A DNA stretch of 64,000 bases from positions 41,736 to 105,735 of the IMG/VR virus record IMGVR_UViG_3300028591_000011; one strand, written 5' to 3'. A program made the position numbers and the translations under genes. Source of the DNA: a virus (taxonomy: Duplodnaviria > Caudoviricetes). Shown in pieces: positions 2,936 through 61,240 of this stretch. Each line of letters opens with the position of its first letter. Position 1 is the stretch's first letter. The notes under the pieces were generated by a model. That model searched no databases. It had not been told where the DNA came from and saw nothing but the letters and a program-made list of their open reading frames with translations.

Positions 2936-4882
2936 ATGGTATACGCAAATGATCAATGGGTATAGCTCCCAGTGAGGGATCTATATGACTCGCAGATTAT
3001 GGCTATGGCTATAAACGCTGCGAAGGATATGTATGAAAAAGGACTTCAGGAAATGAAGGACTTTAATAAGGAGTATGGAGATTTTATGACGCCTATAGCT
3101 GCAGATTAGGATTGGTATAATAAGAACGTTACAGGTAGAGTAAGGAATGTTGTAAATGCCATATATGCAGCTGGTGGAGATCCACTTAGAGATCCATAGG
3201 CAAGAGCAATGATTAGTAGAGAGTTAGCAGGACTACCATACGGAGATATAGCTATGATTAAAACTAGCGCAGAAAATGCTAGAGAGTATTTGAAAGCAAG
3301 ACGATAGCTAGAAATGGCAGGGTTGTATAATCCACTTTACGCTAAATATGATGGTCCAGATTTATCTACCTATGCGACTGTTGGGGAAAACGGACAAGGT
3401 ATATGGGATAAAATGAGTCCTACTCCGTTTAACAACATATCTGCGTTTTCTAAAGATTATTTTGAAGGTTTAAAACCAAATATACGTACAGAATCTAGGA
3501 ACGGAATAACTTATCAAGTTAAAGAAATCTCGGAAAACGATTTACGTAAAATTGCAGAAGATAAGTTTAATGAACTTAAGAATACACCTTAGGGATCTTT
3601 AATGTATGCTAGATATTTGGATATCACGGGTGATGAAGATGCTGCAAGACAGATGTTTAACGATGCCATAGTTAATGCAAATTTGCGTAGGACATATCGT
3701 GAAGATAACTATGATGACAACTATCTGGAAATGGAGAAGCTTAAAATGTAGCAAGATATGAATCAATGGAAGAAACAAGTAGATTCTGCTACACTTGAAT
3801 TGCAACGTCAAGCTTTACAATTAAAAGCTCTTACAGGAACAGGTAGTGGTAAAAAAGGTACTGGTACATCTGGATTAGGGTATGATTATGAAGATTATTT
3901 TAACGAAGATGAATGGTAGCTTGCGAATAATTTAGGTGCAGCGATGGCTTCTACGGATGTTGGTAAAAGTAACGGAATATTAGATTATACGGATTTCGAC
4001 CCGTTGAGTCAAGGGGCCCTGTGGCCGCAAGCATATGAAGAAATTATAGATAGAAATTACGGAAATATTCTATCTAAGAATACTACAATTAATCGTAGTG
4101 AAAATTCTGATTATATAGCACCCTCTGATAATAAGTTAGGTTTGTCTACAGATCGTATAAATATTGGCATTACACCTGGATACGGATATAGCGATATCTC
4201 CGAAGGAATTACAGGAAAGTTCTCTTTACCGTACTCTTTTGACAAGAAGATATTTGGCGGAAAACGTCTCAGTAAAAGTTAGCTTAGCGAAATTAGAGTT
4301 GCAAATTAGAACTTTATCAATGATATATCGTAGTCATACGATCCTGCCAAGTTTGCAAAATGGTGCAATCGTAGTACAGTATCGGGAGATGATACAATGA
4401 TGAATGTTTGTAACGATGACGACTTTATAAATAGAACGCACCATACTGATGAAACAACCGCGAATAGTTATGGTATAGGATACAGTCAGGATTAGATAGA
4501 TCAAATGAAAGAATATACCGATTCGAGGAGAAAAATACTTAATAAAAATAGAGAAAATTTATACGCGAAAGGCGTAGGAAAAATATATTCTATATTAGGA
4601 GTAGACGGTGTAACTCATCTGTACGTACCAGTAAAATTTTATAAAAAGACTGGAAGAGGATCTAATGTAAGATACGAAGAACTTCCTGGTGGAATAAGTG
4701 CCTTTGATATGGGAATTTCTACTAGAGAAAATCCTAACTTTGGAATCAATGGACAAGCGGTGTCTAATTTATATATGAATCCAAATTCTGACTCAGACGT
4801 ACGTCTTGGAGGAAACATACACGCCGGAAAGTATTTGGGGTTATAGAACCCTAGTATAAAGATGAATACAGCAATACCATAA
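2936..4882 (+). CDS. Putative virion cargo protein (648 aa, TAG=Gln)
   Basis: One frame from ATG 2936 to TAA 4880-4882; all internal interruptions read are TAG. Confidence 0.7.
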
Positions 4883-31002: not shown

Positions 31003-31036
31003 TGGACAGTACGGGATTCGAACCCGTTAACTGTCC
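31003..31036 (-). ncRNA. tRNA minihelix (acceptor stem + T-arm only)
   Basis: GGACAGT-TA-ACGGG-TTCGAAT-CCCGT-ACTGTCC-A: perfect 7-bp and 5-bp stems with a canonical T-loop; no D or anticodon arm. Confidence 0.7.
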
Positions 31037-46601: not shown

Positions 46602-47102
46602 TTACTGAATATTACCTTCAAAACAGTCAATCAGAAAGTCTGCCAAGTTGTTCACGTATATGGTTTTATCTTTGATTTCTTCTTCCGAATCTGTTTTTTT
46701 CGGACAGAAATCAATCAACCATTTTTTCATCATTTCGAATTTACATTTTCGAATTGATTTTCCTGATGCAATAGAGACAGCATATGCATTTTCAATATAC
46801 ATATACTTAGATCTAAAGAAATCAACCCAAGAACATACATATTTCCAATAATGTACTTCTTCTGGAGTTAAATCCTTCCAACAAATTGTGTTATAGAAAT
46901 CAAAATGGTGACTATTTCCCTGTATACCAAGGATAAGTTTCGTTTGGTTTAATCGTTCTTTTTTAGAACTAAGCGGCCAAATTTGATTTTTATACACATA
47001 ATCTAACCATTTCTCTTTGGCTTTACACCATTTGAGAGCATAGCTGACAACCTTCGGACATCTATCTCGAAGCATTTGTCTATATCCAGTGTTTTTGTTC
47101 AT
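46602..47102 (-). CDS. Hypothetical protein
   Basis: 166-aa ORF. Confidence 0.7.
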   Translation of the reverse strand: MNKNTGYRQMLRDRCPKVVSYALKWCKAKEKWLDYVYKNQIWPLSSKKERLNQTKLILGIQGNSHHFDFYNTICWKDLTPEEVHYWKYVCSWVDFFRSKYMYIENAYAVSIASGKSIRKCKFEMMKKWLIDFCPKKTDSEEEIKDKTIYVNNLADFLIDCFEGNIQ

Positions 47103-47118
47103 ATTTTTGAAAATAAAG

Positions 47119-47192
47119 TGGACCCTGAGGGGCTTGAACCCACGACCTCTAGATTATGAGTCTATTGCTCTAACCAACTGAGCTAAGGGTCC
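47119..47192 (-). tRNA. tRNA with CAT anticodon, probably tRNA-Ile2 (lysidine) rather than Met
   Basis: GGACCCTTAGCTCAGTTGGTTAGAGCAATAGA-CTCATAA-TCTAGAGGTCGTGGGTTCAAGCCCCTCAGGGTCCA; the body resembles ileX-type tRNAs. Confidence 0.85.
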
Positions 47193-47196
47193 GATT

Positions 47197-47336
47197 GCTC
47201 CCACTTAGGTAGGGAGCACACCCGATCACGCCGCCTCCTTGAGGCCAGTGTAATCAACAACGTTTATGTTGCCAGTTAATTTATATCAAAGCGCTTAATG
47301 TATTTACTTCCGCTGCTGTCTAATACATTCAGGCCC
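47197..47336 (-). ncRNA. ssrA: Permuted tmRNA, coding piece (tag GNINVVDYTGLKEAA)
   Basis: 5' end GGGCCTGAATGTATTAGACAGCAGC; resume context TTAACT-GGC; tag ORF 47273-47226 ends Ala-Ala-TGA; followed by hairpin GCTCCC..GGGAGC. Confidence 0.85.
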
Positions 47337-47498
47337 TTATAGTTCATGAAAGAATGCATTAGCATTACTTTCGTAATCATCACCTCCATAATAACCTTCT
47401 ACAGTACCTAATGGAGATATTGTACCTTTTTTAAGAAGATCTTCAAAAGCTACGGCATCTTTATCGTTTACTTTATATAACACTATATATCCTTTCAT
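47337..47498 (-). CDS. 53-aa protein encoded in the tmRNA intervening segment
   Basis: ATG 47498 to TAA 47339-47337, which abuts G1 of the tmRNA coding piece. Confidence 0.6.
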   Translation of the reverse strand: MKGYIVLYKVNDKDAVAFEDLLKKGTISPLGTVEGYYGGDDYESNANAFFHEL

Positions 47499-47512
47499 GA
47501 TTTTGAATTTTG

Positions 47513-47570
47513 TGGACCTGGAGGGTATGTCTCCCTCGTCCAAACAGCTTACCTCATACACGCTAAGATT
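47513..47570 (-). ncRNA. ssrA: Permuted tmRNA, acceptor piece (5' boundary uncertain)
   Basis: TTAGCGTGTATGAGGTAAGCTGTTTGGAC-GAGGG-AGACATA-CCCTC-CAGGTCC-A. CAGGTCC pairs with GGGCCTG, giving a G3-U70 wobble and discriminator A (Ala identity). Confidence 0.85.
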
Positions 47571-47963
47571 GGAAAAGAATGAGAGGTGGTATTTCCTACT
47601 GATTTATAGAAGGCAATAGAGTGCCATTAACCTTCAACAGCAGCCTCGCCCCAGCACTCTCTGGTCTGACCCACTACGGCTCTTCTCTCATTCTTTATAT
47701 TTTTCTTAGTCCAACAGTTTATTCTGGGACACGCTAAGATTTCTTTAGAGATGAATGCTTGTGACAAATTCTGAATATAACATTGTTAATATTCTATAGC
47801 ATTCAATAGTGAACTCTACAATGATCAGTCGTAGAATTCGATTTAAGGCTATTTACAGGCTCTACAATCGCTTATTACAGCTTTTGTGGTCAGCTAATCC
47901 ACTCAAGTACATAAAAACGATTGTAGAGCTTTATTTGGCCTTCAAAACAAACAGTGATACAAT

Positions 47964-48258
47964 GGCTCTAATAGGCTCTTGTGTATATGTTTCCAGCATT
48001 CTTGATATACTGTGCAGGTTTAACTCTCATATTATTTACCCGGCTCTAATAGGCTCAAACACAGCAATGTGATCTAAATGGGATATAGTTTATTCTCCGT
48101 ATCTTCAGAGCTCGACATCCGAACTGGCTCTAATAGGCTCTTGTTCGACATGTTAATTCATGTGCCCGAGATAACCCCATCTCTCGACTTTAAAATACGT
48201 AATATTCGTAGTCCCTATGGATCCGTGATCTCATTCCTATTGGCTCTAATAGGCTCTT
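47964..48258 (-). repeat. Array of four GAGCCTATTAGAGCC repeats
   Basis: Copies at 47964, 48042, 48126 and 48242; near-identical motif precedes ATGs at 32977, 35001 and 36884. Confidence 0.85.
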
Positions 48259-61076: not shown

Positions 61077-61151
61077 TGCTCCATGGTGTAGCGGTAGCAC
61101 GGGAGGCTCTAACCCTCCAGGTCCGGGTTCGACTCGATGGTGGGGCGACCA
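61077..61151 (+). tRNA. Amber suppressor tRNA (anticodon CTA), Gln-type body
   Basis: TGCTCCA-TGGTGTAGCGGTAGCAC-G-GGAGG-CTCTAAC-CCTCC...TGGGGCG-A-CCA; anticodon at 61109-61111; irregular T-stem. Confidence 0.88.
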
Positions 61152-61153
61152 AT

Positions 61154-61240
61154 AACGAAAGTAGCTCAAAGTGGTAGAGCGGCGACACTTATAGACAGTC
61201 AATCGTATGCTGCGGGTTCAAGTCCCGTCTTTCGTTACCA
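61154..61240 (+). tRNA. Atypical tRNA with 8-bp acceptor and expanded anticodon loop (identity undetermined)
   Basis: AACGAAAG/CTTTCGTT-A-CCA, normal D and T arms, anticodon region GCGA-CACTTATAGACAGTCAA-TCGT. Confidence 0.65.

Follow-up and report, generated by a model that had tools for sequence, protein, structure and literature searches.

Two-piece, circularly permuted tmRNA genes are known from Alphaproteobacteria, Cyanobacteria, some Betaproteobacteria, and phages such as Melnitz (Keiler et al. 2000 and Sharkady and Williams 2004, as cited in PMC11915505 and PMC9004378). According to these accounts, tRNA-processing enzymes cut the intervening segment (IVS) between the two pieces out of the precursor, and it is discarded (PMC11915505; PMC9004378, citing Keiler et al. 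2000). A 2025 census of about 12,000 permuted tmRNAs gives as unique IVS cases one tRNA-Ala gene and one repetitive element, and mentions no protein gene (PMC11915505). Group I introns with homing-endonuclease genes are known in the T-loop of tmRNA genes, those at position 3 coming from Bacteroidia (PMC11915505). The census lists standard, intron, and permuted forms; a combined permuted-plus-intron form is not among them (PMC11915505). A full-text literature search, which was not exhaustive, turned up neither a protein-coding IVS nor any tmRNA cargo in Crassvirales.

Here we describe a permuted tmRNA gene whose IVS is filled by a small, conserved protein gene in one phage and by other cargo in its relatives. 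The DNA analyzed, referred to as the window, is a stretch of 64,000 nucleotides corresponding to bases 41736 to 105735 of a virus record that is complete at 105.7 kb and has direct terminal repeats.

RESULTS AND DISCUSSION

Source of the phage and of the compared sequences

The phage that carries the window is a crAss-like phage of the ruminant gut. Among named phages, it is closest to the crAss-like cr273_1 and cr272_1 (Crassvirales, Suoliviridae, Buhlduvirus), and the RefSeq annotation of both places a tmRNA beside tRNA-Met. DNA nearly identical to the window is present in sheep and bovine gut libraries. The matches from public runs are assembled contigs from metatranscriptome libraries and were used solely for strain variants and joints, such contigs being uninformative on transcription, RNA ends, or strand. 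Close strains were reached through the neighboring 166-aa gene. Contig L009 was dropped as an independent contig because over 9.9 kb its sequence is the same as that of the window (100% identity).

A permuted tmRNA gene

The minus strand of the window carries a circularly permuted, two-piece tmRNA gene (Table 1). The Rfam model RF04321 (tmRNA_permuted) aligns with positions 47567-47226 end to end (32.1 bits, E 1.8e-4) and places the entire ORF in an insert between the acceptor 3' end and G1. The score is below the gathering score of 47 bits; the long insert and the odd T-loop cost score. Relatives L015 (48.3) and L006 (54.4) exceed the threshold, cr273_1 (46.2) and L031 (45.8) nearly reach it, and the close strains L027 and L028 score 40.2 and 35.3. 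ARAGORN did not call the tmRNA in the window; it called permuted tmRNAs in 10 or more relatives, including cr272_1 and cr273_1, with tags nearly identical to that of the window, which follow the pattern GN(I/Y)N(V/I)(V/A)DYTGL(Q/K)EAA. Between the window and cr273_1 the tag differs by seven synonymous changes and one nonsynonymous change. As this locus and its relatives show, tmRNA finders overlook genes of this type that have a long insert, an unusual T-loop, or an intron. The two reading frames of the gene end on different stop codons, TGA for the tag and TAA for the ORF in the IVS.

Table 1. Features of the tmRNA locus in the window and placement of the homologous ORF in relatives
Feature	Position	Strand	Basis or remark
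tmRNA acceptor piece	47513..47567	minus	Rfam RF04321 alignment, pairing table, same piece in L027/L028
P2 3' strands	within 47513..47567	minus	in acceptor piece
T-arm stem	47537-47533 / 47525-47521	minus	loop AGACATA 47532-47526
Acceptor 3' strand CAGGTCC	47520-47514	minus	
Discriminator A	47513	minus	
Intervening segment (IVS)	47337..47512	minus	176 nt, discriminator to G1
Leader CAAAATTCAAAATC	47499..47512	minus	14 nt, A-rich, without Shine-Dalgarno sequence
53-aa ORF (P0001)	47337..47498	minus	ATG 47498, TAA 47339-47337; homology, dN/dS, chance test
tmRNA coding piece	47193..47336	minus	Rfam alignment, pairing, tag conservation with cr273_1
G1-G7 (GGGCCTG)	47336-47330	minus	followed by D-loop analogue and P2 5' strands
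Tag frame	GGC resume codon 47273 to TGA 47228-47226	minus	encodes GNINVVDYTGLKEAA
Terminal hairpin of coding piece	47225-47193	minus	
tRNA-Met (CAT)	47118..47192	minus	abuts the 3' end of the coding piece directly
Strain-specific 171-nt insert	47558..47728	minus	partial duplicate of 5' half of acceptor piece plus closed RNA domain
ORF of L015	1022-1183		in above-threshold Rfam tmRNA 944-1386; leader 18 nt, stop to G1 81 nt
ORF of L016, L017, L019, L020			in IVS; T-loop split by ~840-nt group I intron; leader 15-16 nt, stop to G1 4 nt
ORF of L018			in IVS; ~1070-nt group I intron in T-loop; leader 45 nt, stop to G1 4 nt
ORF of L021	4001-4180		in intronless ARAGORN tmRNA 3893-4386; leader 16 nt, stop to G1 3 nt
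ORF of L022, L023			just 3' of tmRNA, between terminal tRNA-like minihelix and tRNA-Arg; leader 24 nt, ~13 nt to tRNA

The acceptor stem GGGCCTG/CAGGTCC pairs at 7/7 positions and has the G3-U70 pair and discriminator A73 of alanine identity. At all 17 loci compared the stem is fully paired (7/7), always with G3-U70 and a discriminator A, and compensatory changes are found in the acceptor stem (C5-G68 to G5-C68 across lineages), in the T stem, and in the P2 helices between the pieces. The P2 helix that joins the two pieces is GCTGTT/AGACAGC in the window and has the covarying versions TTTGGTA/TACCAAA, ACTAGT/GCTAGT, and GCTGTTC/GACGGC in relatives.

The T stem of the window pairs at 5/5 positions, and its loop is AGACATA, as in L027 and L028, in place of the canonical TTCGAnT. 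The loop is canonical in the other 12 uninterrupted loci, and also in L020 after the intron is read out. Because AGACATA departs from the near-universal TTCGAnT, full activity of the tmRNA is not assured. The D-loop analogue (47325-47326, minus strand) has GU in the window, L027, and L028, versus GG in every other lineage. If G19-C56 has thus changed to U19-A56, the elbow contact would be compensated. The AGACATA loop might also confer immunity to the T-loop intron endonuclease of relatives. The acceptor piece does not encode the CCA end, so host 3' processing and CCA addition would be needed.

The gene that follows tRNA-Met starts with an ATG at 47102, 16 nt behind the tRNA, and relatives have a tRNA or a tRNA-like minihelix in the place corresponding to this tRNA. 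In L028, a strain about 96% identical, the anticodon arm of tRNA-Met is interrupted by an insert of ~470 nt (L028:1955-2455) that encodes an HNH endonuclease (PF13392, E 8e-10), and ARAGORN no longer calls the tRNA. At L025:1300-1500, just downstream of the tmRNA, the N terminus of an ORF resembles methionyl-tRNA formyltransferase by eye. The noncoding stretch upstream of the tmRNA contains four copies of GAGCCTATTAGAGCC (window 47960-48140; L027:1690-1970), which are conserved in L027 and L028.

A conserved protein gene in the intervening segment

A sequence-only reading of the window had proposed that a 53-aa gene fills the IVS, with its ATG 15 nt past the discriminator and its TAA ending just before G1. 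The coordinates agree with this description: the discriminator is at 47513, the A of the ATG at 47498 is the 15th base past it, and the last base of the TAA (47337) is directly followed by G1 (47336). The 176 nt of the IVS are accounted for by the 14-nt leader and the 53-codon ORF, all within the Rfam insert.

Searches based on words did not find relatives of the protein: a k-mer protein search returned only its own cluster, and no homologue was found in viral contigs, in GenBank phages (tblastn), or in 185k prokaryote genomes. An exhaustive, full-library HMMER scan, the sole route by which family A surfaced, recovered the full-length homologues P0004 (53 aa, 53% identity) and P0006 (59 aa, 57% identity). 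A profile search yielded 14 clusters, one of which has 25 members on contigs of up to 105 kb. The proteins of the family are 53 to 59 aa long and share 18 invariant columns; the length difference of the 59-aa clade reflects an in-frame indel (an 18-nt insertion).

The sequence-only reading would lose its footing if the frame were not conserved. The frame is kept in several lineages with dN/dS below 1, and the comparison across relatives that it had called for gives values of 0.1 to 0.4, consistent with purifying selection: 0.26 to 0.38 between clades and 0.12 to 0.39 within the 59-aa clade. For example, L016 and L018 differ by four synonymous changes and no nonsynonymous change. Given that purifying selection has kept this frame open in several phage lineages, mostly in the same slot, the family A ORF is, as judged from these sequence comparisons, a real protein gene.

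The family, which is small and confined to phages, is represented once in the window. The protein (5.9 kDa) is acidic (pI 4.6; 4.3 to 4.6 across the family), and its predicted fold is beta-alpha-beta-alpha (model pLDDT 71). A Pfam search with the protein gave no match, and the best PHROG match had an E value of 0.2. Foldseek comparison of the model with PDB and BFVD gave none at E<=0.001, and VIA-align (wide) gave only generic two-layer alpha/beta matches, the best at Z 3.1. The predicted complex of the 53-aa protein with SmpB of Bacteroides thetaiotaomicron scored 0.00, which speaks neither for nor against binding. In view of the lack of a Pfam, PHROG, or fold match, any proposed function is a guess; ours is an early, host-directed accessory factor, by analogy with other small acidic phage proteins.

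The gene is recurrent in the IVS yet not bound to it. At all nine family A loci checked at the DNA level it is found either within the IVS or directly 3' of the tmRNA, and every lineage so checked except that of L022 has it in the IVS (Table 1). L022 and L023, which have the gene outside the IVS, have a 74-nt noncoding element as their own IVS; in L022 the ORF is again placed between a tRNA-like minihelix and a tRNA. Within the IVS, the distance from stop to G1 is 0 (window), 3, 4, or 81 nt in family A, and direct abutment is peculiar to the lineage of the window. Leaders of 15 to 18 nt, rich in A, are found in L015, L016, L020, L021, and L031. Of the seven IVS variants that contain an ORF, five have a leader of 14 to 18 nt and a stop 0 to 4 nt from G1; the exceptions are L018, with its 45-nt leader, and L015, with 81 nt before G1. 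A spacing of about 15 to 16 nt also separates tRNA-Met from the next gene in the window and tRNAs from genes in relatives.

In L017 (1218-2058), L018, L019, and L020 (2136-2973), a group I intron (RF00028, up to 89.7 bits) splits the T-loop between GGGTT and CGAAT. The intron contains an antisense endonuclease gene (phrog_3322, E 1.6e-25).

Different cargo in the same slot

The sequence-only reading had offered, as its alternative, that the IVS is a cargo or insertion site, and had called for a comparison of the slot across related genomes. That comparison reveals cargo swapping between near-identical strains. In L027 and L028, which have flanks 96 to 98% identical to the window, the gene is missing: the IVS of L027, which has the same odd T-loop, is 18 nt long, and the 93-nt IVS of L028 is occupied by a structured element that reads CTCCTATGCACTCTAC...GCAAGAGGCGGGAG and then a run of T. 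In a contig from another sheep sample that is ~98% identical on both sides, exactly the stretch 47337-47511 is replaced by 170 other letters. An exact-pattern scan of the viral contigs for the start of the coding piece of the window returned no match.

The slot can also hold an unrelated protein gene. In L031, where the neighboring protein is 66% identical to that of the window, a 200-nt IVS is filled by an unrelated acidic ORF of 60 aa (P0118, family B) with a 15-nt leader and a stop 2 nt before G1, inside an ARAGORN tmRNA at 1779-2275. A variant of P0118 keeps the frame intact although 7 of its 60 residues are changed; the second variant of family B is P0119. P0118 has no Pfam or PHROG match and no relative in the viral contigs, and the atlas leads were all below threshold.

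Other relatives have noncoding IVSs of 60 to 114 nt with hairpins or, in L006, a tRNA-like insert, and family A is absent throughout the complete genomes that have an ORF-less IVS. The range of ORF-less IVSs in relatives (18 to 114 nt) fits the expectation of the sequence-only reading, and the published account (PMC11915505), that such segments are normally short, noncoding, and discarded. The insert in L006 (L006:3258-3330) resembles a tRNA: it ends in GCCA and has an acceptor-like stem and the T-arm-like CCAGATTCGACTCCTGG; neither ARAGORN nor Rfam reported it separately, with clan competition from the tmRNA. The element of the L028 type also fills the IVS of L029/L030 and of L022, and L022 has a second copy after tRNA-Arg. 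This recurrent element of ~45 to 65 nt (L028:1743-1803, L029:1839-1899, L022:3762-3803, and L022:4325-4390) has the consensus C/TCCTATGCACTCTAC ... GCAAGAGG(C/T)GGG(A/G) followed by a T run, and could be terminator-like or a miniature mobile element; the window lacks it. The TATGCACTCTAC element was searched for in the window and is absent there.

Since the spacer of related phages holds another tiny gene, an RNA element, or almost nothing, these sequence comparisons strongly support the IVS as a hypervariable, swappable cargo slot. With 18-nt, 93-nt, and 170-letter alleles and an unrelated 60-aa ORF in the same place, the alternative raised by the sequence-only reading is better supported than its main proposal, which was that tmRNA processing and expression of the ORF are coupled.

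The window also has a strain-specific 171-nt insert (Table 1), which is missing from L027, L028, and one public-run contig (joint 47557>47729) and therefore looks like a recombination scar. It is flanked by a 13-nt direct repeat (ATCTTAGCGTGT...), and its RNA domain is closed by a stem of ~12 bp. The acceptor-piece fragment at its start is closer to the acceptor piece of the L020 clade than to that of the window itself. The possibility that the insert contains a remnant of a group I intron was rejected, as Rfam gave no signal.

How the cargo might be released and exchanged

The explanation that we favor, with a probability of roughly 70%, is that the spacer of the permuted tmRNA is a cargo slot that holds a genuine accessory gene, with the tmRNA halves acting as homology arms and as processing signals. 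The spacer would be transcribed with both tmRNA halves and would have to be cut out, while being otherwise unconstrained except for its single-stranded ends and, usually, a closing helix. A 3' tRNA-type cut by RNase Z after discriminator A47513 and a cut by RNase P before G1 at 47336 would release an mRNA of ~176 nt with a 14-nt A-rich leader and no 3' UTR, like tRNA-punctuated transcripts, and the excised RNA would then be translated. Both the excision by host RNase P and RNase Z and the translation of the excised RNA are what we infer from the layout. Short, A-rich leaders without a Shine-Dalgarno sequence suit initiation of the Bacteroidia type.

The conserved tmRNA halves would serve as homology arms, so that recombination between relatives infecting the same cell would swap, remove, or replace the cargo. 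It is solely the sharp replacement boundaries at these halves that suggest homologous recombination between related phages as the swapping mechanism; the 171-nt insert, with its L020-like fragment and its absence from close strains, points the same way.

Coupling of tmRNA maturation to expression of the ORF through excision of a mini-mRNA, as the sequence-only reading suggested, is plausible from the arrangement of the sequence. The abutment of stop and G1 behind this idea is lineage specific, and the gene is kept outside the IVS in L022. A bolder version, which we regard as rather unlikely, is that the tmRNA halves form a portable gene-cassette holder whose cargo is released as a short-leader mRNA, with competition between termination and trans-translation. 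The conserved halves would then be homology arms between co-infecting crAss-like phages, and the tRNA-like ends would be host RNase P and RNase Z sites that release any cargo. Because the stop is 0 to 4 nt from the RNase P site, the released message would essentially lack a 3' UTR, and its termination would compete with trans-translation by its own source tmRNA. If true, maturation of the tmRNA would be inherently linked to both the expression and the turnover of its cargo.

Alternative explanations

One alternative, which we consider unlikely, ties the protein to trans-translation: it might act on the phage tmRNA as cofactor or regulator, inhibit the host tmRNA-SmpB system, or be a built-in client, and the placement of its gene would be selected for coexpression. 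An excised mRNA that ends at the stop would leave terminating ribosomes resembling non-stop complexes. The constant association of family A with the tmRNA at the nine checked loci is consistent with such a role, as is the closeness of stop and G1 (0 to 4 nt) in five of the seven IVS variants that contain an ORF, that of the unrelated family B among them. Moreover, the phage has no SmpB gene of its own and thus relies on host factors that a small protein could modulate. However, L027 and L028 keep the same tmRNA without the gene despite their 96 to 98% identical flanks, complete genomes with related tmRNAs lack family A, and an unrelated ORF can fill the slot. Furthermore, L015 has 81 nt between stop and G1, and the Pfam, PHROG, and fold searches revealed no similarity to known trans-translation factors.

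The insert could instead be selected mainly as RNA, as a closing hairpin for the acceptor strands or as protection of the RNA, with the frame secondary or untranslated. The IVS RNA is predicted to form a rod and folds far better than shuffled sequences (z -3.55 in the window and -6.62 in L021). In the predicted fold the start-codon region CAUGAAAGGA pairs with the end of the ORF, UUCUUUCAUG, the codons for the conserved N-terminal ATGAAAGGA and C-terminal TTCTTTCAT are mutually complementary, and noncoding IVS variants have closing hairpins too. Such a closing helix would keep the acceptor strands together and must open for translation; in this model the buried start codon could hinder translation, or conservation could be partly at the RNA level. 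Nonetheless, nonsynonymous change is suppressed 3- to 8-fold relative to synonymous change, which is unlike the outcome of constraint on RNA only, and frame, start, and stop are kept at 53 to 57% amino acid identity with an in-frame indel. L015 breaks several helix pairs but keeps the protein, and the ORF is intact after its move outside the IVS in L022. Since RNAalifold gave a negligible covariation term (-0.29), we do not claim RNA-level selection on the helix; RNA as the main target of selection appears quite improbable. One might also suspect that the frame is open by chance, or is an artefact of gene calling, in so long a spacer: the ORF is AT-rich and short, has no Shine-Dalgarno sequence or database annotation, and was given false upstream starts through the tRNA-like domain by gene callers (P0002, P0018, and P0028). 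However, for random 176-nt sequences with this composition, the chance that either strand contains an ORF from ATG to stop of 53 codons or more is ~0.002 (~0.2%), and dozens of variant sequences have the frame intact with dN/dS well below 1. The conservation data effectively refute this reading, which we consider extremely improbable.

Other features of the window

A tRNA with anticodon CTA (amber suppressor; labeled Pyl by ARAGORN) is encoded at 61077-61151 on the plus strand of the window. In the adjoining tRNA (61154-61240, plus strand), ~17 nt take the place of nine model positions in the anticodon region. By analogy with other crAss-like phages, the two tRNAs at 61077-61240 hint at late TAG recoding. 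T-loop-like GTTCRANYC motifs occur 17 times in the window versus 6.2 expected, a number reached by no shuffle; those on the minus strand at 31015, 31222, 39759, 42534, and 50153 are among them, and several lie between genes.

Implications and comparison with known systems

These findings indicate that the spacer of two-piece tmRNAs, which is treated as junk, can host protein genes, with two unrelated families so far, and that the spacer genes turn over among near-identical phage strains. The spacer is thus a new place for hidden small phage genes, which are masked by the RNA feature or mis-started in standard annotation. The locus is also a candidate for natural, tRNA-punctuated mRNA release in a bacterial virus, which is directly testable, and may be regarded as a compact design of nature for expressing small cargo, with the conserved RNA halves as both homology arms and processing signals.

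As in known permuted tmRNAs, the order is acceptor piece, IVS, and coding piece, the tRNA-like domain is formed in trans, the G3-U70 pair and discriminator A are present, the tag ends in AA, and cuts are required at the tRNA-like ends. The locus differs in that the IVS of the window carries a conserved protein gene and that of relatives other cargo, in its residence in a crAss-like phage of Bacteroidia-rich gut communities, and in the noncanonical T-loop of the window. The IVS oddities of the census are likewise cargo in a permuted-tmRNA IVS, and L006 also has a tRNA-like insert. However, the census cases are RNA or repeat cargo for which no strain-level polymorphism is described, whereas the cargo of the window is a protein gene.

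The arrangement resembles the T-loop introns of tmRNA genes in that a tmRNA gene contains a protein gene that is absent from the mature RNA; relatives L017 to L020 have a T-loop group I intron in addition to the IVS gene. Unlike these self-splicing introns, the IVS would be removed by endonucleolytic, tRNA-type processing, and the 53- to 60-aa IVS cargo has no nuclease motif and thus cannot drive its own mobility. In animal mitochondrial tRNA punctuation, tRNA-like structures also flank coding RNA, and cuts by RNase P and RNase Z would here, too, give minimal UTRs. The locus differs from the mitochondrial case in belonging to a phage in a bacterial host, with a flanking "tRNA" that is the two halves of one tmRNA domain and with processing that is deduced from the sequence. 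Like phage morons, the IVS genes are tiny, variably present among close strains, without known homologues, and placed harmlessly to essential functions, but their site is the discarded spacer of an RNA gene rather than a position between protein-coding genes. The RNA family itself is known; within the literature searched, a swappable, protein-coding cargo in the IVS looks new, as does the combined permuted-plus-intron tmRNA of L017 to L020.
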